From Clostridia bacterium (GTDB lineage: Bacteria; Bacillota; Clostridia; Oscillospirales; CAG-272): 64,000 nucleotides of DNA. The notes below the pieces were generated by a model. It saw only the letters and a program-made list of their open reading frames with translations, made no database searches and was not told where the DNA came from. The stretch spans positions 52,799 through 116,798 of the forward strand of contig JAFTVG010000027.1 in assembly GCA_017465885.1 (NCBI GenBank). The letters run 5' to 3'. The position numbers were made by a program, and so were the translations under genes. This document shows positions 45,901 to 57,023 of the stretch, one piece after another (position 1 is the first letter of the stretch; each line of letters starts with the position of its first letter).

Positions 45901-46428
45901 TTAGAAGTGTTTGCCTTCGCCCGGGCGGTCTTCGCCTTCGCCGATATAGTCTTCTACCGGTCGGTCATCGATCTCGGTCGGTGTGTCGTTCTCGAAGGGA
46001 TTCGGCTGACCGCCGATCTGAGGTTTGTATTCCGCAAGGCATTGATCCCCCTCGTCGATGCATTCGACGGTTTCTTCTTTCGATTCTGTCGTAACCGTAT
46101 CTTCGGTGATTTCGGTACATTGATCTGTCACGGTTTCTTGCGCCGTCGGTGTTTTTTCTTCATTGAACACCTCGTGTTCTTCGGTCACAACTTCGTTTTC
46201 GTTTACCGTTGTTTCCTTGATTTCAACGGCGGTTTCCGTTTTGCTTAATTCGCCTACAAACGCCGTTACTTCGCTTGTTTCGCTTGTTTCGGGTACTTGC
46301 TCCACCTGCACCGTTATCGCCGTTTGTGACGTTTTTTCGGCGGTCACGGGCGGCTCATCTGTAGCCTTTTGTGGTGTGGATAAGAGCGTCATAATTAGTG
46401 CGAGAATGATGGTGATTAACTTTTTCAT
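45901..46428 (-). CDS. secreted acidic Thr/Glu/Val-rich protein, function unknown
   Basis: The start is trimmed to ATG 46428 (MKKLITIILALIMTLLSTP signal). The mature part is low-complexity and rich in T, E and V. Confidence 0.6.
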   Translation of the reverse strand: MKKLITIILALIMTLLSTPQKATDEPPVTAEKTSQTAITVQVEQVPETSETSEVTAFVGELSKTETAVEIKETTVNENEVVTEEHEVFNEEKTPTAQETVTDQCTEITEDTVTTESKEETVECIDEGDQCLAEYKPQIGGQPNPFENDTPTEIDDRPVEDYIGEGEDRPGEGKHF

Positions 46429-46556
46429 ATATGTAATTCCTTTCCGAGCTCGTCTTTGCTGCTCAACACAAGAATAAACTGAAAAACAAATAAGTCCAGA
46501 GAGAATCGGCATGAAAATGAGGAATCGCACACATTTTGGTACGATTCCTCTGAATA

Positions 46557-46829
46557 TTATTCAATTTCTGAATTCATTACTTCGATGATGATCCTGGCTC
46601 CAAGCGTGAACCCTCTTACAAACGCCTCCCGCTCGGCGATGCCATACATCTCGTTGGTGCACTCGGTAAACTTTTCGAGAATCTCTATTTCCTCGTCATT
46701 CAGACGTTTCTTCAGATCTTCCTCGTGCCGCACGATGTAACCAAGCAGTTCAGAATACTTACTGCCTTTCTTGAAGTCCTTCTCACAAGGAGAGATGTTG
46801 CCGTACCATAATTCTTCAATGATGTTCAT
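46557..46829 (-). CDS. hypothetical 90-aa helical protein
   Basis: RBS GAAGGAGG. MNIIEELWYGNISPCEKDF... I have seen similar small proteins on Clostridial mobile elements, but I cannot name the family with confidence. Confidence 0.6.
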   Translation of the reverse strand: MNIIEELWYGNISPCEKDFKKGSKYSELLGYIVRHEEDLKKRLNDEEIEILEKFTECTNEMYGIAEREAFVRGFTLGARIIIEVMNSEIE

Positions 46830-48414: not shown

Positions 48415-49440
48415 CTATGCCCCTAACAAACTCTGATCGAACGCAAACAGAGCCTCATTGATTTCAAAAATATTGTAGTTGCCCTTACTGATAAAGTATT
48501 CGATGATAATATCGAACTTATTGCTATGCGATAATGCGAACCCTGCCTTACGGAGCATATCCTCGGTTTCTGCGAGTGAAAGCTCCAAGGAAATCGCAAA
48601 CGCAAGCGCGGTGGGTTTGCTCGGCTTATAATGAATGTCACTACGGATTTTGGAGAACAGCTTGCGGTCAATGTTTGCTTTCTTGTAGCACTCGGCGTCG
48701 GTCATACCCTTTTCGTCAATCTTACGCAGAAGCATTTGAGAAAAGCTCTCGTCGATCTGCTTCAGCTTCGCATCAAGATCGTCCTCTGCCAGCATAGCCT
48801 TGCAATCGCATATTTCAAGAAAGTCGTCATCCGATTTCTTTCGTCTTGTGCGCGGAGCCATTGACGGTAGCGCGTTCATACGAATACGCTCACGGCTGTA
48901 ATCAGTATGCTCGTCCACATAGTTATCATCGATATATTCGGCAATGTCCGAGAACAGCTTCTCGCTGATCTTATAGGCAGCCTTGTCGAATATGACGATA
49001 TAAACGGTCATTTCGTTTTCAAGAAGAAAGTTGCTGATAACGTCGATAGCAACTTTCAAGGCTTGATCCTTGGGGTATCCGTACACACCCGATGAGATAA
49101 GCGGGAAAGCCACGGTTTCACAGTTGTTCTCCTTAGCAAGAGCCAAAGATTCGCGGTAGCAGGATTCAAGTAACGCCTTTTCTCCGTGCTTGCCGTCATT
49201 GTAGATAGGACCGACGGTATGTATTACATGCTTGGCCGGCAAATTATAACCGCCCGTAATCTTCGCTTTGCCCGTCTTGCAACCGCCAAGTGTTCTGCAT
49301 TCGGCGAGCAGTCCCAAACCCGCGGCGCGGTGAATCGCACCGTCAACACCTCCGCCGCCCAATAGCGACTCGTTGGCAGCATTGACAATGGCATCCACCT
49401 TCATTTTTGTTATATCGTTTCTTACTATTTCAAGCGGCAT
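48415..49440 (-). CDS. macro domain (ADP-ribose-binding/hydrolase) protein fused to a C-terminal HTH-like domain
   Basis: 341 aa. N-terminal MacroD/YmdB-type motifs [26 protein letters not shown] and [13 protein letters not shown]-terminal [23 protein letters not shown]...[15 protein letters not shown] resembles an XRE-like HTH. Confidence 0.85.
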
Positions 49441-49453
49441 TGGTGTTCCTCCT

Positions 49454-50530
49454 TTAATTCAATTTGCTCTCCTCTTTTATAACACTGTATTTTTCAGTTA
49501 TATACTGTGCGATACTATCGTAATCGCAAAATAGCGTTTTCTTGTTTATGCCAATCTTATCTAACTCTTTCAAAATGGCTGCTTTATTTTTAATGCGCAA
49601 TTCTATGTTTTGAAAATATAGGTGCTGTTTAGCTAACACTCTGAAGTTGTAGACGGGTTCAATATAAGTCAAATATCCTTGATATAGGAATAATCCCTGC
49701 TGATTTCTACCACGTTCAAATTTCATAATAGGCTGATATAACATATTGGGCAAAAATGTTATAGAGTGAATTGGTTCTGTATATGAGAGAGCTTTTTTGA
49801 AAAATACAAACTGCAAAGTAAGATAAAAATATAAGTCTTCATCGCAAATCTCTAACGGAAACTTCTTGACATCTTCAAAAGCATCTTGCAAATATGCAAT
49901 ACATTCCCATACATCGAACTTTTTGCGCTTTAGTTTTTTATAAAAGACTTGTTCTTTATCATCAAATGGCGAAGAAAAGTAAAACAGATAACTACTAATC
50001 AATTTTTCCATCAAAAATGAAAATGTATTGGGATGCTCTTTTTTGAACTGCTTAAATAACGGAACGAGCAACTCCAACTCGTTGATTGTATTAGCAAATA
50101 CGCACTCAATCAAATTTTCATTTGGGTATCTATGTATCAAATTAGTAACATCAATAGATTCGTCAGATCCTATATAAACGGCACCATCATCATCTTGCTT
50201 GCCGAGGCAAGCGAAATACAGAGCTGTTAATGGTGATGTTGATACATCTAAAAGATTTGTTGGCACTCCGTGATGCTGGGCAAAAGCAATAAAGTCTATC
50301 TTATCTTCGTTGAGTTTGTGGGCGGTTTCCTTATAAAACTCATCAATCATCTTCATAAACGGATACGGCTCGTTTGAGTTCCACCTAAACTCATACGGTC
50401 TAAGTGCAGACGATTGTCTTGACGGGAAAACATCTCCCTCTCCACGATAATACGAAACATTTTCAAACTTGTTTATATATCGTATATACTTTGAAAGACT
50501 ATCTATTTCTATTGTCTTTGTTTTTAACAT
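49454..50530 (-). CDS. FRG domain-containing protein
   Basis: 358 aa. YYRGEGDVF supplies the (F/Y)RG motif. [26 protein letters not shown] matches the conserved core of the FRG domain as I recall it. Very AT-rich. Confidence 0.75.
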
Positions 50531-50595: not shown

Positions 50596-51288
50596 TTATA
50601 GAATTGTTCGTCCAAGCGTTTCCAATTTCACATCAAGCTCTTTAATAGCACTACATACTGCACCGTTCAATTTTTTTAATTCGTGATCTACGGTAGAGAA
50701 ATATTCAATTATTTCCTTTTTGGTAGGACACTCAATATCGACATTATATAATTTATCGTGTAGTGTTTCGAATTCTTCTGCTAAACTTTCTGCATCATAA
50801 GATAGTTTCTTTTTACAGTATTCGTAACCATCAAAGGGCAACAATTCATTAAATGTACTTTGCATAATGAAGGAGTTAACCCAATTTGCTCTGGAGCCTA
50901 CGTCGTAAATGAAATCAAACAACTCCGTCGTATCATCATATTTAGTAAAGTTCTTATGTAAAAGTTCGCTGTAAAACTGTATGTATTCACTCAATTTGGA
51001 TTTTAATTCTTCCAAATATGCCTTTTGAGATTTCAAGTTCGAAGTGCAGCCCTGCTTAATGCCCGAAACCAAACATATAATTAAGCCTGTTATCAATCCT
51101 GCAAAAATATTAGCACATATTGATGACCAAAAAGCCTCACCAATATTGTTCAAGTAAACGGAAACCAATAGCGCAATTATAAAAAGTGCCGTAATTATTA
51201 AAGCAATCCACAAATGAGGATAACTAACATATAACAGCAGTTTTCTTTTTGCGCTTTTTAGAAACTTTTTTATTATGTACTTATCCAT
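50596..51288 (-). CDS. 2-TM membrane protein with helical cytoplasmic domain (paralogous architecture C)
   Basis: 230 aa. Basic N-terminus, TM1 WIALIITALFIIALLVSVYL, a short loop, TM2 ICANIFAGLITGLIICLVSG, then ~140 aa of predicted helices. Confidence 0.7.
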   Translation of the reverse strand: MDKYIIKKFLKSAKRKLLLYVSYPHLWIALIITALFIIALLVSVYLNNIGEAFWSSICANIFAGLITGLIICLVSGIKQGCTSNLKSQKAYLEELKSKLSEYIQFYSELLHKNFTKYDDTTELFDFIYDVGSRANWVNSFIMQSTFNELLPFDGYEYCKKKLSYDAESLAEEFETLHDKLYNVDIECPTKKEIIEYFSTVDHELKKLNGAVCSAIKELDVKLETLGRTIL

Positions 51289-51308
51289 TCTCCATCCTCA
51301 CTGCTTTT

Positions 51309-51962
51309 TTAGAAAAAATGTTTTCCCAGAAGCATTAACTGATCTTCACGTTCACGATACAACTCTTGCATTTTGTCCGCAAGTGGCAATAACTCCGTAT
51401 GAATATCAAGTATAGTTGATTCGATTAGATTCGTTTCATTCGAATTATATAGGCTTTCCCTGTAATTGTTTAGATTATCTCTATCGACAGGATCGTATCC
51501 TTTCTCAGGAAGTATGTCATAGAGTTCTATCGGTAGTTGATTTCTTGCCAATTCAAGTTCATCAATCCATAGATATACATTCTCTCTGTCCTCAAAAATA
51601 TCCCGCTTGCTGCCATATAGAGCCTTGAGTTTATAGCAATTGGCAATATTAGTGATGTTTCTAATAACATCCAGCACATCTTTAAGCTGCTTATACTCTT
51701 TTTGGAGTTTGGCAACTTTATTGTTTCTAATATTTGACAAAAAGTAGAACACCAAACCAGTAAAACAACCACAACTTGTCGAAACCAATGCGCCTGAAGT
51801 CCAATCGGAATAATCATAAATGAGAAAAGATAAAAACAGCAAAAGTGATGCAATCACAAATATGATAATTGCCCACCAAAAAGGAGATAGCCTAAATAAT
51901 TGAGTACGCAATTCTCGATTACGATATCGTATAATTCGTTGTACTGTTTTATCTTTTCTCAT
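51309..51962 (-). CDS. 2-TM membrane protein with helical cytoplasmic domain (paralogous architecture B)
   Basis: 217 aa. Basic N-terminus, TM1 FWWAIIIFVIASLLLFLSFLIY, a short loop, TM2 ALVSTSCGCFTGLVFYFLSN, then ~120 aa of predicted helices. Confidence 0.7.
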   Translation of the reverse strand: MRKDKTVQRIIRYRNRELRTQLFRLSPFWWAIIIFVIASLLLFLSFLIYDYSDWTSGALVSTSCGCFTGLVFYFLSNIRNNKVAKLQKEYKQLKDVLDVIRNITNIANCYKLKALYGSKRDIFEDRENVYLWIDELELARNQLPIELYDILPEKGYDPVDRDNLNNYRESLYNSNETNLIESTILDIHTELLPLADKMQELYREREDQLMLLGKHFF

Positions 51963-52026
51963 AAAAACCTCGCATTGATTGGAATCATAATTCTAAGTAA
52001 CACTAAAATGTCTATTGAATGTTCCT

Positions 52027-52848
52027 TTAGCTATTATCAATCGCATTCAATTTTTCGTTCAAATCCGCATAATAGCGCATTCCTAAACCCTGTAAATTTT
52101 CTTTTTGTAAATACAGCTTCAAAATGTTATCACTAATTTCCGGCTCGGACTTGGGGATCATATTCATATAAAACAAAAAGAGCGCTAATGTGTTTTCTCC
52201 CGCTTCGGTATATACAATCCCTTCAAAATCATCTAATTGCAACTTCATCTTTTTTCCAATGTTTAGTATGATTGTTCTATTATTTATTACAATCATATCA
52301 AATTGTTCTTGTTTAGGAACTTTATTTGAAACATAGAAAGTAGTGATATTGGATATTAGAGTTCTTATATCAGCGTATGTTTTGTCTGCAAAAATAAATG
52401 TTGGGATTCTTTTGACGCATTCTTTTCCTTCCTCCGAGCGTTCAAATCCAGTTCTTATCCTAATGAGTTTTTTTACACTTTGAACCTGTTTTAAACCTCT
52501 TTCAATTTCATTATTATTCGACAAATCCGGTTTAACTTCAATTGCATAATCTACTCCATCTGCAAAGATAATGGATGGTTTTCCTCTTTCACCATCCAAA
52601 GTGTACGGATGAGAGGGGTTAATAACAATACAATCTATAGAATTACTTCTGTTTCCAAAACTGTCAATAATATTGCCTTTAACAATTCTAAATGGAAAAG
52701 GGAAAAATTTTTCCAAGAAGTTATGGATTATATCTTCACGTCGGTCAGATACTTCTTGTGGGGTACCTTCTCCCTCAATACTTGCTTTTGCAAACGAAGT
52801 TGCAATCTCTTGTGATTCTATTTTGAGTATTTCCAGTAGCTTGCTCAT
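52027..52848 (-). CDS. PD-(D/E)xK-like nuclease-fold protein (DUF6602-like)
   Basis: 273 aa. A candidate catalytic pattern is D in NSIDCIVINP followed ~30 aa later by AIEVKPD (ExK). The ATG overlaps the stop of the MmeI-family gene (ATGA at 52845-52848). Confidence 0.65.
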   Translation of the reverse strand: MSKLLEILKIESQEIATSFAKASIEGEGTPQEVSDRREDIIHNFLEKFFPFPFRIVKGNIIDSFGNRSNSIDCIVINPSHPYTLDGERGKPSIIFADGVDYAIEVKPDLSNNNEIERGLKQVQSVKKLIRIRTGFERSEEGKECVKRIPTFIFADKTYADIRTLISNITTFYVSNKVPKQEQFDMIVINNRTIILNIGKKMKLQLDDFEGIVYTEAGENTLALFLFYMNMIPKSEPEISDNILKLYLQKENLQGLGMRYYADLNEKLNAIDNS

Positions 52849-55619
52849 TGTTTATCCTCCATTAACTTTTGATACATCTTCATCAGCTCCGCAACACAAG
52901 TGCTTTCCGTCATAGTCTTCACGTCGAAGCCATACGCCTGCATTACGGCGCGGTCATTTGCTTGATGTGCCTTGCGGAGTTCGGGTGGCATAGCAACTTC
53001 ATCATAAAGGTCTGCCAAAGAACAATCGGGATAGAGTGCGCGTGCGTCAAGAATAGCCAGTGCTGTTTCCTCAATCTTCTTTTTCTGTTCGGCGGTAGGA
53101 TTGCACCAAGGAAAGTTGTTATACACAACTGAACCACTATATCTATATCTCATCTCTAAGCGACCGGCAACAGTTCTCATCCAAGCATTGTGAACATTAG
53201 ATGTTAACACACCAAAATGATATAACGTTGCGCCACAAATAATTGCACACGCGTCAGAGGCAATCACCTCTGGCTCCATAAATCCTATTGGTATATATTT
53301 TCTGTTTTCAGATGAATGTCTTGGTATGATAAGATAGTTTTCGTCTGTTTGCGGTGTTGAAAAGAAAAGATATGGTTTCTCGGCTGATTTACGTGTTGGC
53401 TCAGCAGAGCTATTCTCTCTAAACTGTTTAATCGCAAGCAACCTTTTAGCAATTTCCTTGTTTTTTCTATACAGTGCAGGAGATACGCCTTTTAACCACA
53501 AACAATATCTTTCAATATCGTTATTTAAAAAATCTTTTGCTCCTACATAACGTCTAATGCACGGTGCTACAGCTGGATCATTAGCGACAAGCGCATCTCT
53601 TTCTTCTTTGGAGAGTATGAAATTTCCATCATCTGTAGGTTGGTTTCCTTTTGTCATCTTAGGAACATCGCAAATCGGCTTACTTCTACTTGTTACAAAA
53701 ACAGTTGGCGCATTTATTAAATAGCCGTTGATATTATCAACGAATTGAAAATGATCGCCATCGAACAATTTTTTCTTTCCCAAATTTTCTTCAACACTAA
53801 ATCCAACGATTACACAGTGAACATGGGCTTTAAGGTTAGCTTCACTGTCCCAACGAAAAGTTCTATAAGCAAAGTTTATATGAATGCCATAATGAGTAAA
53901 CAAAGTTTCCCAAAGAGGTGATACCTGCTCACCTTGTGTAATACTGTTGGTTGATACTAATGCTACTCTTACATTGGTTCCTTGTATCAATTTTGCTGCT
54001 TTATGATACCAAGCACCCACGTAGTCAATACTATTGGATAATTTAATTTTTCCAAAAATTGCTACTGCGTCATCCTTTTGTTCTTTTGTCATCATAGATG
54101 CACCAACGAAAGGCGGATTACCCATAATGTAATTCAGCTTGTCCTTGGGTACAACAGTTTCCCAATCGGTACGAAGAGCGTTGCCTTCTACAATGTTGGC
54201 ATAAGATTTCAAGGGAAGAAAATCGAGGGACATATTTACAATGTCCTCTGTCTCTTTGAGCATCTGGCTTTCTGCAATCCAAAGCGCAGTTTTCGCAACG
54301 GTTACGGCAAAGTCATTGATCTCAATGCCATAAAATTGCCCGATTGATACTTTAATAAAGCCTTCGAAGCCAAGCAAAATCTGCCCTTGGTTTATAATTT
54401 CAAGTGCTTCGTTCTCCAAACGGCGCAAGGAGATATAAGTTTCGGTTAAGAAGTTACCGGAACCACAGGCGGGATCAAAGAATGTAAGCTTAGACAGCTT
54501 TTCACGGAATGCTTCTGCTTTATCGTTGCGAATCTTGGGGACTTTCAATGCCTTGATCTCTGCAAGCTCCTCGCGGAGTTCATCCAGGAACAGCGGATCA
54601 ATAACCTTATGGATGTTCTCAATAGAGGTATAGTGCATACCGCCGCTACGACGGGTTTCGGGGTTCAAGGTGCTTTCAAATACTGCGCCGAAGATGGTGG
54701 GGCTGATCTGCGACCAATCAAAATCTTCACTTGCATTGTGCAGGAGCAGGTCAACAATATCCTGCGTCATGTTGGGAATTTCAATATTTTCGTCAGCAAA
54801 CAAGCCACCATTGACGTAAGGAAATGCTGCCAAAGCGGCATCTATATAAGGATCACGCTCTTCGGTTTTGGTATCGAGCACACGGAAAAGGTCAATGAGT
54901 GCACGGCGCACATCTTTCACGTTAAAGCTCTTTATGTAATTATGGAATTTCAGATGACCGCCGAAAATGCCTGCGTCCTCTGCATAAAGGCAGAATACAA
55001 GACGGACACAAAGCATATTCAAGCTGCGCAGAGTTTCCTCACTGTCGGGATGAATGTACTGCTTCAAAATTGCATCGTACAACTTGCCGACAAGCTCACC
55101 GGCTTTGATGGAGATCTGTTCTTCACGGTGCAGAAGCTCGCTCTTTTCTTCCACAAGAAACTGCAGGCGATAATACTCTTTACCGAGGTCCTTCAGCAAA
55201 ATACTTTCCGGCTCACCGGTGGGCTTCTCCATGTCGTAAATAAGGAACTCTTCAAAATTACAGGTGATGATCCAACGTGGACGCTGCGAATAAGGCAGTG
55301 CCGCCGAATATCTCTGCGCTTGTTGAAAGGGATTGAGCAAAGTACCATCCGATTGACGAATGGGGCTACGCAAATTGAGTCCCTTCTTTTTCTGCTCAAT
55401 GAGCACATGGGTAGAAGGGATATGACCGTCAATAAAGCTTGTGTGGTCCAGCTTTACACGTTCCTCAAACAATATAAACTTTTCGGGTTCCGCAACGCCT
55501 AAAACGTCACGGGCAAGAGAAAGCCAAAAAGATTGGCTGTCGCTTTTTTCGTCACCACGGTCTTTCCAATATTCCGCAAAAGCCTTTGCGGCTCTTTTTC
55601 TATCTGTATCTGTCATCAT
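52845..55619 (-). CDS. MmeI-family type IIL restriction-modification enzyme (fused nuclease-methyltransferase-TRD)
   Basis: 924 aa from ATG 55619 (RBS AGGAGA). The track start at 55637 is a TTG. The N-terminus has FIDGHIPSTHVLIEQKK (D-x10-ExK, as in the MmeI nuclease). AdoMet motif I is FFDPACGSGNFL. Catalytic motif IV is IMGNPPFVG. The size and order match MmeI-like enzymes. Confidence 0.85.
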   Translation of the reverse strand: MMTDTDRKRAAKAFAEYWKDRGDEKSDSQSFWLSLARDVLGVAEPEKFILFEERVKLDHTSFIDGHIPSTHVLIEQKKKGLNLRSPIRQSDGTLLNPFQQAQRYSAALPYSQRPRWIITCNFEEFLIYDMEKPTGEPESILLKDLGKEYYRLQFLVEEKSELLHREEQISIKAGELVGKLYDAILKQYIHPDSEETLRSLNMLCVRLVFCLYAEDAGIFGGHLKFHNYIKSFNVKDVRRALIDLFRVLDTKTEERDPYIDAALAAFPYVNGGLFADENIEIPNMTQDIVDLLLHNASEDFDWSQISPTIFGAVFESTLNPETRRSGGMHYTSIENIHKVIDPLFLDELREELAEIKALKVPKIRNDKAEAFREKLSKLTFFDPACGSGNFLTETYISLRRLENEALEIINQGQILLGFEGFIKVSIGQFYGIEINDFAVTVAKTALWIAESQMLKETEDIVNMSLDFLPLKSYANIVEGNALRTDWETVVPKDKLNYIMGNPPFVGASMMTKEQKDDAVAIFGKIKLSNSIDYVGAWYHKAAKLIQGTNVRVALVSTNSITQGEQVSPLWETLFTHYGIHINFAYRTFRWDSEANLKAHVHCVIVGFSVEENLGKKKLFDGDHFQFVDNINGYLINAPTVFVTSRSKPICDVPKMTKGNQPTDDGNFILSKEERDALVANDPAVAPCIRRYVGAKDFLNNDIERYCLWLKGVSPALYRKNKEIAKRLLAIKQFRENSSAEPTRKSAEKPYLFFSTPQTDENYLIIPRHSSENRKYIPIGFMEPEVIASDACAIICGATLYHFGVLTSNVHNAWMRTVAGRLEMRYRYSGSVVYNNFPWCNPTAEQKKKIEETALAILDARALYPDCSLADLYDEVAMPPELRKAHQANDRAVMQAYGFDVKTMTESTCVAELMKMYQKLMEDKQ

Positions 55620-55633
55620 AATATCTCCTATAA

Positions 55634-56581
55634 TCAAAATGCGCTTTCTTCTTCAACGAAGCCGGTAATGTGTCTAAGTTGAGAAAACACGGGGACTTTC
55701 TTCTCGTACTTAACTTCTTTTCTAAAATATATTTTAGAACGAAATTCTTCAATTCTATCGGACACATCGTCAAACTTCCTTTGATATACAGTGGTCCACT
55801 CACTACCGTCTTTTTGAGTAGTTTCGGTTGCAAAAAAGAAATCATTGAGATCCAAAACCTTTTTGCAACATACACCAAAACTGCCTTTTCCGTCCTTTAT
55901 CATATTAAAATGAAATACTTCTAATTTGATTTTATTTAGATATTCTTGGAGCTTGGAATAAATCGACTCAAAAGCAATGAGGCGGATCTTTTTGTTGTCG
56001 AAAAGGAAATCTAAATTGCCATACGCATTTGATAAATCCTCCAAATCGATTTTTGATGCGGCAATATACATATCCATATATTTCGTAAATATATTGCTAT
56101 AGTTTTCAATACGTTCATTATAAATTCGAATCAAGATTGATTCGATATCATCACTCTCGGAGAAGGACATTGGTTCATTTTCTTGCATCCAAGCAATGTA
56201 GGCATCACGTTTTTTATGAACCGCCTCGACCCCTAATGCTTTAGCAGTTTCGCCGTCACATTTTTCCCACAGTTTGTTATGCTGTTCTTCTGATATACAA
56301 TCCAATATCAATACTTGAGGCTCATCCAATTTCAGAAATTTAATTTTTCTGAGTTGCACATAAACTTTATATGCAGCTCTTAAAAAATCTTCCATTGCCC
56401 TCCTGCGTTCTGCAAAGTATTCTATCAATGACATAATAAATCCAAGCAACGCGCTACCGAAGATTGCCATTGAAATATCGTACATGAGCTTAATGCAAAA
56501 ACAATTTGCAATTATAGCACAGATTAACGAAACAGCAGAAATTCCGGCGGTGATAAAAGTTACCCATTTTTTTGCTTTCAT
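55634..56581 (-). CDS. 2-TM membrane protein with long helical cytoplasmic domain (paralogous architecture A)
   Basis: The start is trimmed to ATG 56581 (MKAKKWVTF...). TM1 FITAGISAVSLICAIIANCFCI, a short loop, TM2 MAIFGSALLGFIMSLIEYF, then ~250 aa. Very AT-rich. Confidence 0.7.
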   Translation of the reverse strand: MKAKKWVTFITAGISAVSLICAIIANCFCIKLMYDISMAIFGSALLGFIMSLIEYFAERRRAMEDFLRAAYKVYVQLRKIKFLKLDEPQVLILDCISEEQHNKLWEKCDGETAKALGVEAVHKKRDAYIAWMQENEPMSFSESDDIESILIRIYNERIENYSNIFTKYMDMYIAASKIDLEDLSNAYGNLDFLFDNKKIRLIAFESIYSKLQEYLNKIKLEVFHFNMIKDGKGSFGVCCKKVLDLNDFFFATETTQKDGSEWTTVYQRKFDDVSDRIEEFRSKIYFRKEVKYEKKVPVFSQLRHITGFVEEESAF

Positions 56582-56594
56582 ACTCTGAATCCTT

Positions 56595-56801
56595 TCATTT
56601 AGCAGATTTGTCAGCTGCTTTGCCGCTCTTAATCCATGCGTCAACTTCGCTTGTCTTAAACTTCCAACTACGCCCCACCTTGCTTGCGGGCATCTTCTTT
56701 TCATTGATCCAAGTGAGCAGGGTGTCACGGCTTACACCAAGATACTCACACATTTCTTTGGTGGAACACCAACGTTCGGGCATATTTTTTAAATCTCGCA
56801 T
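56595..56801 (-). CDS. excisionase-family / HTH_17-type DNA-binding protein
   Basis: 68 aa. WCSTKEMCEYLGVSRDTLLTWINEKKMPASKVGRSWKFKTSEVDAWI is the MerR-like excisionase HTH. RBS GGAGAGG. It is the first gene inside the right end of the element. Confidence 0.8.
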   Translation of the reverse strand: MRDLKNMPERWCSTKEMCEYLGVSRDTLLTWINEKKMPASKVGRSWKFKTSEVDAWIKSGKAADKSAK

Positions 56802-56837: not shown

Positions 56838-56866
56838 ATTATATCATATTTTCTTGCTTTTTTCAA
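56838..56866 (-). promoter_or_regulatory. candidate promoter (TTGAAA-17-TGaTATAAT) of the HTH-2TM-MmeI operon
   Basis: Minus strand: TTGAAA (complement of 56861-56866) - 17 nt - TATAAT (complement of 56838-56843) with an upstream TGA, ~37 nt before ATG 56801. Confidence 0.65.
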
Positions 56867-57023
56867 CGGGTTATTGCGGAATTGTGCGGAGTTAAATCGA
56901 AATTATTTGTAAAATGCCGAATTTGATTTGACTATTGACATTTTTTAAAACAAAAAAGCCATAGTACAGAACTCAAATAAATTCTATACTATGGCTTTTC
57001 GCTTCTCTCAATCGGTTGTTTTA

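Follow-up and report, generated by a model that had tools for sequence, protein, structure and literature searches.

Three membrane proteins in a low-GC island of a Clostridia genome as candidate effectors linked to restriction genes

Background

Why should genes for small membrane proteins lie on both sides of a restriction enzyme gene? The question is raised by a stretch of 64,000 nucleotides (nt) from a Clostridia bacterium (Oscillospirales; CAG-272), taken from GenBank assembly GCA_017465885.1, contig JAFTVG010000027.1, positions 52,799 to 116,798; this whole stretch is called the window below. Three open reading frames (ORFs) on its minus strand encode proteins with two transmembrane (TM) helices and a long cytoplasmic part. 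These are designated p1, p2 and p3, and the protein families to which they belong are designated families 1, 2 and 3. A preliminary description of the DNA had proposed that the three are diverged paralogues which act as membrane effectors or sensors attached to defence systems. The genomic context of their relatives lends support to the second half of that proposal: all three families are recurrently found in tight linkage with restriction-modification or bacteriophage exclusion (BREX) genes on mobile elements. The reading favoured here, at a probability of roughly 0.45, is that they are interchangeable restriction-linked membrane effectors which would work in the manner of PrrC, the Ronin protein RonA or PARIS.

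Architecture and topology

The three genes are located at 50596-51288 (p1; 230 amino acids, aa), 51309-51962 (p2; 217 aa) and 55634-56581 (p3; 315 aa, with the N-terminus MKAKKW), exactly where they had first been placed. Full-length homologues support their start codons: family 3 has an invariant M1, and families 1 and 2 have conserved N-termini. The layout originally described, with a basic N-terminus, a hairpin of two TM helices (2TM) and a long cytoplasmic tail, is found in all three proteins by hydropathy and charge. In p1, the N-terminal segment has a net charge of +6, TM1 spans residues 26-44, the loop of about 8-11 aa has a net charge of -1, and TM2 (residues 56-74) is followed by 15 aa with a net charge of +3. 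The corresponding values in p2 are +7, TM1 at 30-48, a loop of 8 aa at -2, and TM2 at 57-75 followed by +3. In p3 the N-terminal segment carries +3 over only 6 aa; TM1 spans 7-25, the loop is about 8-13 aa long, and TM2 (39-57) is followed by +2. According to the positive-inside rule, this charge distribution gives a hairpin with both termini inside the cell and a cytoplasmic tail. On this prediction the outward-facing part amounts to only 8-13 residues, and the cytoplasmic part to more than 70% of each protein.

AlphaFold2 models of p1 (predicted local distance difference test, pLDDT, 90; predicted TM-score, pTM, 0.77) and p3 (pLDDT 88.7; pTM 0.79) are of high confidence and mostly helical. 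In both models TM2 runs unbroken into a long cytoplasmic helix, which covers residues 52-111 in p1 and 31-77 in p3. The term helical tail is only approximate for p3, the larger cytoplasmic domain of which is modelled with a small C-terminal beta sheet. Four of the 57 window ORFs of at least 100 aa were flagged as having a 2TM-tail architecture, and all four are found in the low-GC island described below. The fourth (45901-46530) was judged to encode a putative secreted or lipoprotein-like protein and not a member of the group.

Kinship and conservation of TM2

Pairwise BLASTP comparisons among p1, p2 and p3 are not significant (E = 0.4-0.6). Each protein has full-length unnamed homologues: 44 for p1, 38 for p2 and more than 219 for p3. 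When the families are compared as profiles with hhalign, families 1 and 2 match with a score of 84 (E = 3e-12; 140 columns; probability 97.6%). Family 3 matches family 1 with a score of 39 (E = 9e-5) and family 2 with a score of 30 (E = 2e-3); reversed-profile controls give scores of 19-26 and E-values of 0.005-0.07. Hidden Markov model (HMM) matches across families 1 and 2 range from 5e-12 to 1e-7, and some members of the two families can be aligned by BLASTP at E = 6e-5 over 212 columns, which is near full length. Judged by these profiles, p1 and p2 come from a single superfamily in which they have diverged, and the expression diverged paralogues is apt for this pair. The link of p3 to the other two is weak. 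p3 belongs to a separate family, possibly SLATT-like, with an uncertain relation to p1 and p2.

An exhaustive profile search assigns 330 clusters (at 50% identity) to the superfamily of families 1 and 2. Nearly all members are 210-235 aa long, match from end to end and stand alone. No domain fusion which might provide a functional clue is present among them; longer relatives add only TM helices or low-complexity leaders. The tandem arrangement of p2 and p1 was considered as a conserved two-gene system and rejected, as divergent genes of families 1 and 2 are found one at a time and the number of copies varies from one to three. Family 3 occurs as two ORFs of 127 and 172 aa in two loci (L106 and L107; related loci are given by L numbers throughout), 3' of a type III-like Res and a Schlafen/AlbA_2 gene. 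This split is probably a frameshift or a pseudogenisation.

The most strongly conserved segment of each family is TM2: SSICANIFAGLITGLIICLVSG in p1 (51061-51126), LVSTSCGCFTGLVFYFLSNI in p2 (51729-51788) and ISMAIFGSALLGFIMSLIEY in p3 (56417-56476), all of which had been quoted exactly in the preliminary description. The pattern drawn from them at the time, G-x-x-x-G-[LF]-[IV]-x-x-L, is matched exactly by p1 only. In p2 the GxxxG is present and the last position is F; p3 has G-x4-G and lacks GxxxG. Conservation of TM2 is 0.90, 0.92 and 0.87 in families 1, 2 and 3 respectively, versus 0.59-0.66 for TM1. Across the superfamily of families 1 and 2, G64, T67, G68 and L69 (p1 numbering) are invariant. 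Among the invariant TM2 residues are also G65, T68 and G69 in p2 and G42, G47, S51 and E54 in p3. In all three families TM2 is rich in small residues and is conserved all round the helix; helical-face analysis finds no single conserved face (p = 0.14-0.93).

Association with restriction genes

Families 1, 2 and 3, and also a fourth type of 2TM protein, X, are repeatedly found tightly linked to restriction-modification genes in loci that are divergent. The related loci come from gut Clostridia, among them Oscillospiraceae, Lachnospiraceae and Acutalibacteraceae. Family 3 was sampled in 82 loci. It stands directly 3' of HsdR in 28 of these (27 of them with 0-16 nt between the genes), and the HsdR partners fall into four clusters which are down to 25% identical. 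In L035, a complete BREX locus with the order BrxC-PglX-family 3-PglZ-BrxL, family 3 is inserted between PglX and PglZ; a 2026 comparative survey of BREX names no membrane component. Family 3 also adjoins type IIG/ISP enzymes, a type III Res, a giant type IIG enzyme with a DruE-like helicase and, in the window, an MmeI-type enzyme.

Families 1 and 2 are associated with MmeI-type enzymes, and family 2 also with a type I enzyme. Family 2 is found between HsdS and HsdR in a type I locus (L110) with the order HsdM-HsdS-family 2-(197 aa)-HsdR, and in L112-L115 it begins 7 nt after an MmeI orthologue. In L116-L120 it is family 1 that follows MmeI, with an 8-nt overlap that takes in the MmeI stop codon. 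L022 and L023 contain the order MmeI-X-family 2-family 1, with three 2TM genes in tandem, and X occupies the slot which is filled by a DUF6602 gene in the window. L025 has family 2-family 1-FRG-Macro after Fic-KAP NTPase-MmeI-DUF6602, and lacks p3. The MmeI enzymes of these loci are 55-69% identical and form one lineage; thus one enzyme lineage carries different 2TM genes in the same downstream slot.

X (L022:181-870 and L023:532-1221) is a 2TM protein of 229 aa with a helical tail, and its gene starts 4 nt after MmeI. It is not detected by the HMMs of the three families. By hhalign it matches family 3 at E = 3e-4 and family 1 at E = 1e-3, with reversed controls at 0.02-0.07. A different type of helical-tail protein, with a single TM helix, is encoded at L110:7668-8261, between family 2 and HsdR, and at L027:12347-13129, after a type IIG enzyme. 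The two copies are homologous (31% identity; E = 7e-16) and represent another restriction-linked membrane family.

In one lineage of family 3 (L084, L086, L090 and 11 further loci), a 578-aa fusion of VanZ with an NTP_transf_5 nucleotidyltransferase is encoded 54 nt 5' of the family 3 gene. These two could form a signal-generator and effector pair, unlike the restriction-linked loci. Other neighbours of the 2TM genes are associated with defence (KAP NTPase, Gabija-type OLD/UvrD, an AAA_15/21 ATPase and a protein with a Cap15 receptor domain) or with mobile elements (TnpV, integrases and relaxase).

The window and L022-L026 also contain genes for an FRG-domain protein and a Macro-domain protein, which repeat as an adjacent pair (48415-50530 in the window). 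The FRG protein (49454-50530; PADLOC candidate PDC-S15) lies 65 nt 3' of p1 and matches the phage family phrog_24967 at 2e-71. The Macro-domain protein (48415-49440), predicted to bind or hydrolyse ADP-ribose, has a C-terminal extension and follows 13 nt 3' of FRG. DarT/DarG systems consist of an ADP-ribosylating toxin and a macro-domain antidote. Since FRG has been placed in the ADP-ribosyltransferase superfamily (PMC9503650), the FRG-Macro pair may work in a similar way. The family 2-family 1-FRG-Macro cassette of L022-L026 is confined to close relatives (at least 85% identity). For this reason FRG-Macro is treated as a separate module, and a joint function of p1 and p2 with it was rejected. 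Among divergent members of families 1 and 2, the linkage that is seen is with restriction enzymes and not with FRG-Macro.

Searches of libraries, structures and mobile-element collections

No significant family was found in Pfam, NCBIfam, PADLOC or PHROG for p1, p2 or p3, nor for 98 family 3 members and 40 members of families 1 and 2. Matches to the Protein Data Bank (PDB) are likewise non-significant, with nothing below E = 0.06 by sequence profile. The judgement that the proteins cannot be assigned to a named family thus stands, and ordinary housekeeping membrane families, which had been named as the alternative, are not matched. With the PADLOC-DB v2 effector models, which cover membrane effectors of Abi, CBASS, Pycsar and retron systems, p1 has no match, p2 matches only DruM (E = 0.04) and p3 only RTasSLATT (E = 0.11); the PHROGs give nothing below E = 0.027 for any of the three. 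Matches to DUF6404, DUF4131, DUF2207_C and Bestrophin-like models are sub-threshold noise of the TM type. A link to bestrophins was likewise rejected as unsupported, the TM-score to KpBest being about 0.17. Structural matches found with Foldseek are generic helical bundles (OspC, talin, Tar and designed proteins), none of them at E <= 1e-3, and were set aside. No relatives were found in IMG/VR viral contigs, INPHARED phages or PLSDB plasmids.

The defence island of the window

A defence island of low GC content (34-43%) carries p1, p2 and p3 as cargo. Over the low-GC stretch that runs from about 44 to 58 kb of the window, values are 34-46%, versus about 54% on either side. The window's sequence is present in ruminant and other gut metagenomes. 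All genes of the locus are on the minus strand and are arranged in the order of transcription HTH_17, p3, MmeI, DUF6602, p2, p1, FRG, Macro. The gene spacing of the run from HTH_17 through MmeI to FRG is operon-like. HTH_17 and p3 are separated by 13 nt and the p3 stop and the MmeI ATG by 14 nt; MmeI and DUF6602 overlap at ATGA. The gaps which follow are 64 nt (DUF6602 to p2), 20 nt (p2 to p1, p2 being the 5' gene) and 65 nt (p1 to FRG). HTH_17, p3, MmeI and DUF6602 are read as an operon, which is followed by p2 and p1. A promoter-like sequence (TTGAAA-17-TATAAT with an extended -10 TG) is present at 56838-56866, 5' of the HTH_17 gene. A terminator-like hairpin with a 20-bp stem at 56953-57000 would close the upstream transcription unit.

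Metatranscriptome contigs from bovine and gut samples match 50660-50848, inside p1, with 0 differences. A contig match at 51789-52066 crosses the junction of DUF6602 and p2 with 1 difference. These matches hint at transcription of the genes and at a shared transcript of DUF6602 and p2, with DNA carry-over as a possible source; operons are not definable from RNA because the metatranscriptome contigs are too few.

The restriction-methylase (52845-55619) is of the MmeI type (type IIL/IIG). It has all five MmeI Pfam domains and matches PADLOC REase_MTase_IIG at 1167 bits. Its likely start is the ATG at 55619, after an AGGAG ribosome-binding site; the mechanically called ORF begins at a TTG at 55637. 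The next gene (52027-52848) encodes a DUF6602/NucC-like protein with a PD-DExK nuclease fold, the start of which forms the ATGA overlap with the MmeI stop. This MmeI-DUF6602 pair (52027-55619) is kept in L025 and L026. MmeI, which has a nuclease domain of its own, retains a second nuclease-fold protein as partner there, and it is this partner's slot that X fills in L022 and L023.

The HTH_17 protein (56595-56801) is an excisionase-family, MAD1-like DNA-binding protein encoded 13 nt 5' of p3. It scores 67 bits on the NCBIfam model MADS1, for the HTH protein of the methylation-associated defence system (cut-off 80), and matches PADLOC mad1 at 8e-10. It is probably a regulator of the restriction operon. 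The HTH_17-family 3 pair is also present in L027 and L028; HTH_17 was rejected as an obligate partner of family 3, being found in only 2 of 77 evaluable loci and the window. A DUF6809 homologue is encoded at 46572-46826 (minus strand) and is 45% identical to the Pfam-annotated copy in L016. Elsewhere a TnpV-DUF6809 pair is found immediately 5' of family 2 or of HTH_17-family 3 (L016-L019 and L027). Such a pair is the mark of a transposon-like element's cargo hotspot; in the window no TnpV was found.

A proposed mechanism and the points against it

As restriction-linked effectors, the 2TM proteins would each sit idle in the membrane, restrained by their own cytoplasmic domain. They would be triggered when restriction is bypassed, whether because the enzyme is blocked by an anti-restriction factor, because its cofactor is depleted or through some other phage cue. 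The cytoplasmic domain would then free the conserved TM2-stalk helix, and the protein would oligomerise into a pore or leak, so that the membrane is depolarised and the infection aborted. Judging by the retention of family 1 beside decayed MmeI genes, the 2TM proteins are not lethal in the absence of a partner; auto-inhibition would therefore have to come from the cytoplasmic domain itself. What the analysis shows comprises the genes, their predicted hairpin topology, the homology of p1 and p2, the helical fold class, a patchy distribution in islands and on mobile elements, and the linkage to restriction systems of unrelated architecture. We infer the defence role, the pore formation and the trigger by analogy with known systems.

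Several observations weigh against this reading or restrict the form it can take. HsdR, MmeI, PglX/PglZ and the type III Res share no subunit; specific guard contact with the enzyme is therefore unlikely, and the trigger would have to be general. The MmeI gene is decayed in L116 (518 aa) and in L118 and L120 (a C-terminal remnant), and family 1 and the downstream relaxase are intact there. The retention of family 1 beside a decayed MmeI disfavours a strict role of the enzyme as antidote. Linkage to HsdR covers only 3 of the 14 family 3 clusters (at 70% identity), and many of the metagenome loci are near-copies of each other. Linkage to restriction genes, although frequent, is not obligatory: about half of the sampled family 1 lineages are found alone among unrelated or housekeeping genes (such as DnaX and PPDK). 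In the window, the promoter and terminator are consensus matches only. None of the effectors or pores characterised so far resembles the proteins significantly, and the best Foldseek E-values are 0.036 (p3) and 0.05 (p1) against the PDB and 0.10 (p3) against the predicted viral structures of BFVD.

A broader form of the proposal is rather unlikely. According to this, gut Clostridia have a class of membrane fail-safe effectors, comprising at least four 2TM families and a 1-TM family, which plug interchangeably into type I, type IIL/IIG, type III and BREX systems. What they sense would be some general effect of anti-restriction, for example DNA mimics or depletion of S-adenosylmethionine (SAM), and not a specific enzyme; they would then kill via a pore lined by TM2. 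General sensing is proposed because SAM-dependent adenine methylation and exposure to the same phage counter-measures are nearly all that the partners have in common.

Alternative explanations

The proteins could instead be divergent pores of the SLATT superfamily, opened by an ADP-ribose-derived or other nucleotide signal which FRG-Macro or a nucleotidyltransferase makes or processes. The overall architecture is the same as that of SLATT proteins, with two TM helices, both termini inside and flanking cytoplasmic helices; it should be noted that this layout is not specific to SLATT. The family 3 members give sub-threshold matches to NCBIfam SLATT_1 in 71 of 98 cases, with a best E-value of 1.4e-4, and the 41-bit cut-off is never reached. 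SLATT_4 is matched by five of the 98 and SLATT_6 by one, all sub-threshold, so that the cut-off of every SLATT model is unreached by all members. p3 itself scores 13.3 bits on SLATT_1 (E = 0.06); residues 4-63, which form the hairpin, align with positions 21-82 of the 132 in the profile. To this can be added the faint match of p3 to RTasSLATT. However, GvpU, the NCBIfam model of an unrelated gas-vesicle accessory protein, is matched by 53 of the 98 at a similar level (best E = 1.9e-4, sub-threshold). Because an unrelated family scores about as well, the SLATT_1 matches are not independent evidence. The GvpU matches could be due to chance or to a shared small motif.

In Pfam, the SLATT models fall outside the top families of the 98 family 3 members and of the 40 members of families 1 and 2, and DUF4231 is matched by only four of the 98 (E >= 0.07). 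p1 and p2 have no SLATT match at E <= 1 in Pfam, NCBIfam or PADLOC. The early comparison with SLATT is thus reasonable as a concept; as a statement of membership it fails for p1 and p2, which give no signal, and for p3, whose family gives consistent sub-threshold matches about as strong as those to GvpU, it is no more than possible. Genomic context is also divided. The repeated family 2-family 1-FRG-Macro cassette and the VanZ-NTP_transf_5 fusion 5' of family 3 in 14 loci are what a signal-gated pore would lead one to expect, but the FRG-Macro linkage is limited to one close lineage and absent from all divergent family 1 and family 2 loci, p3 does not adjoin FRG, and the partners are mostly restriction enzymes rather than synthases of nucleotide signals. 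Signal-gated SLATT pores are regarded as improbable.

Non-toxic membrane partners of the restriction enzymes are another unlikely explanation. Such proteins would tether or regulate the enzyme, either concentrating it where DNA enters the cell or delaying restriction while a newly arrived element methylates its host. Tight and apparently co-translated packing with several restriction types would be in keeping with this role, as would a large cytoplasmic domain fit for protein binding and the recurrence, in these loci, of further membrane-anchored helical proteins, namely the 1-TM family of L110 and L027. Against it, one family pairs with enzymes which have no subunit in common (type I, IIL, III and BREX), and one MmeI lineage pairs with four 2TM families. 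Many loci have no restriction gene, and family 1 is kept after MmeI decay. The all-round conservation of TM2 also exceeds what a passive anchor needs; TM1, an adequate anchor, is poorly conserved.

Somewhat harder to sustain is the idea that these are superinfection or entry-exclusion proteins of the mobile element, blocking injection or conjugative entry at the inner membrane independently of the restriction genes. Their membrane location, their carriage on mobile elements with TnpV, integrases and relaxase, and their behaviour as single genes in variable contexts all fit. But only 8-13 residues are exposed and the proteins are more than 70% cytoplasmic, the phage genomes and viral contigs searched, where exclusion genes are common, yielded no relatives, and the repeated tight coupling to restriction genes would be left unexplained. 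It is very improbable that three unrelated small membrane proteins share a layout by coincidence and have no common function: the non-significant pairwise BLASTP values, the weak link of p3 to p1 and p2 and a loose motif that fits p1 only would permit this, but the homology of p1 and p2 is robust at the profile level, and the three families share a hyper-conserved TM2, a topology and an unusual restriction association.

Significance

No bacterial defences are commoner than restriction-modification and BREX, and both are routinely disarmed by phages. From Proteobacteria a few cytoplasmic systems are known which act as a back-up and penalise the disarming: PrrC, PARIS, Ronin and retrons. If p1, p2 and p3 are indeed restriction-linked effectors, a back-up layer would be widespread in gut Firmicutes. 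It would be run by membrane proteins of new folds, and it would be modular, being exchangeable between unrelated restriction types. Several hundred clusters of hypothetical proteins would receive names and a testable function, and detection models could be added to defence-annotation tools. The tandem arrays (two copies in the window and three in L023) would provide a tractable case of effectors diversifying within a single locus.

Comparison with known systems

Restriction-linked back-up effectors and 2TM defence effectors are kinds of system which are already known. Neither the curated libraries nor the literature that were searched contain the families described here; the families, their folds, the breadth of their partners and their exchangeable tandem layout are new.

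SLATT 2TM proteins are predicted to be pore-forming effectors of conflict systems. The SLATT families (SLATT_1-6 and DUF4231) resemble p1-p3 in having a 2TM hairpin and cytoplasmic helices, and it is over the hairpin that family 3 gives its weak SLATT_1 matches. They differ in size, as p1-p3 have a cytoplasmic part of about 140-250 aa after TM2 whereas the whole SLATT_1 model has 132 positions. They also differ in company: the partners of p1-p3 are restriction enzymes, and those of SLATT are SMODS, SLOG, TIR and reverse-transcriptase signal generators. The effectors Cap14 and Cap15 of cyclic-oligonucleotide-based antiphage signalling systems (CBASS), and PycTM of the pyrimidine cyclase system (Pycsar), are likewise small membrane proteins, which collapse membrane integrity on activation. 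A protein with a Cap15 receptor domain adjoins the family 2 gene in L020 and L021. p1-p3 do not match the PADLOC models of these effectors and have no recognisable cyclic-nucleotide receptor domain.

PARIS is found in a BREX island of Salmonella, where it senses Ocr and aborts infection (PMC11341690). Its slot in the island is comparable to that of family 3 between PglX and PglZ in L035. PARIS consists of two cytoplasmic proteins, AriA and AriB, an ATPase and a TOPRIM nuclease, whereas p1-p3 are single membrane proteins.

RonA of E. coli ECOR55, a small putative toxin that targets the membrane, is genetically linked to HsdMS of type I systems or to BREX, restrained by HsdMS and triggered by the anti-restriction proteins Ocr or ArdA (bioRxiv 10.1101/2023.04.06.535777). 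p1-p3 resemble it as candidate membrane effectors linked to restriction or BREX genes. RonA, at 61 aa, has a single TM helix, and its gene invariably accompanies hsdS/hsdM, whereas p1-p3 have 217-315 aa, two TM helices and a large cytoplasmic domain, are found in Clostridia with many partners and can stand alone. The two have no sequence relationship, and the toxicity and triggering of p1-p3 are only inferred.

PrrC, with which the concept of restriction-linked ORFs termed Rlo is grouped here, combines a cytoplasmic ABC-ATPase with an anticodon nuclease. The slot of family 2 in L110 is presumably the position which prrC occupies in the EcoprrI locus. p1-p3 differ from PrrC in being membrane hairpins which lack nuclease and NTPase motifs and have no similarity to it in sequence or fold; their linkage also reaches type IIL, IIG/ISP and III enzymes and BREX. 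PrrC is kept silent by the type I enzyme to which it is linked, and a phage anti-restriction peptide activates it (PMC2610378). The likeness to PrrC so described is that of an accessory gene in or attached to a restriction operon, as in L110, the product of which is proposed to be a latent suicide effector of the second line that acts when restriction is countered (PMC2610378).

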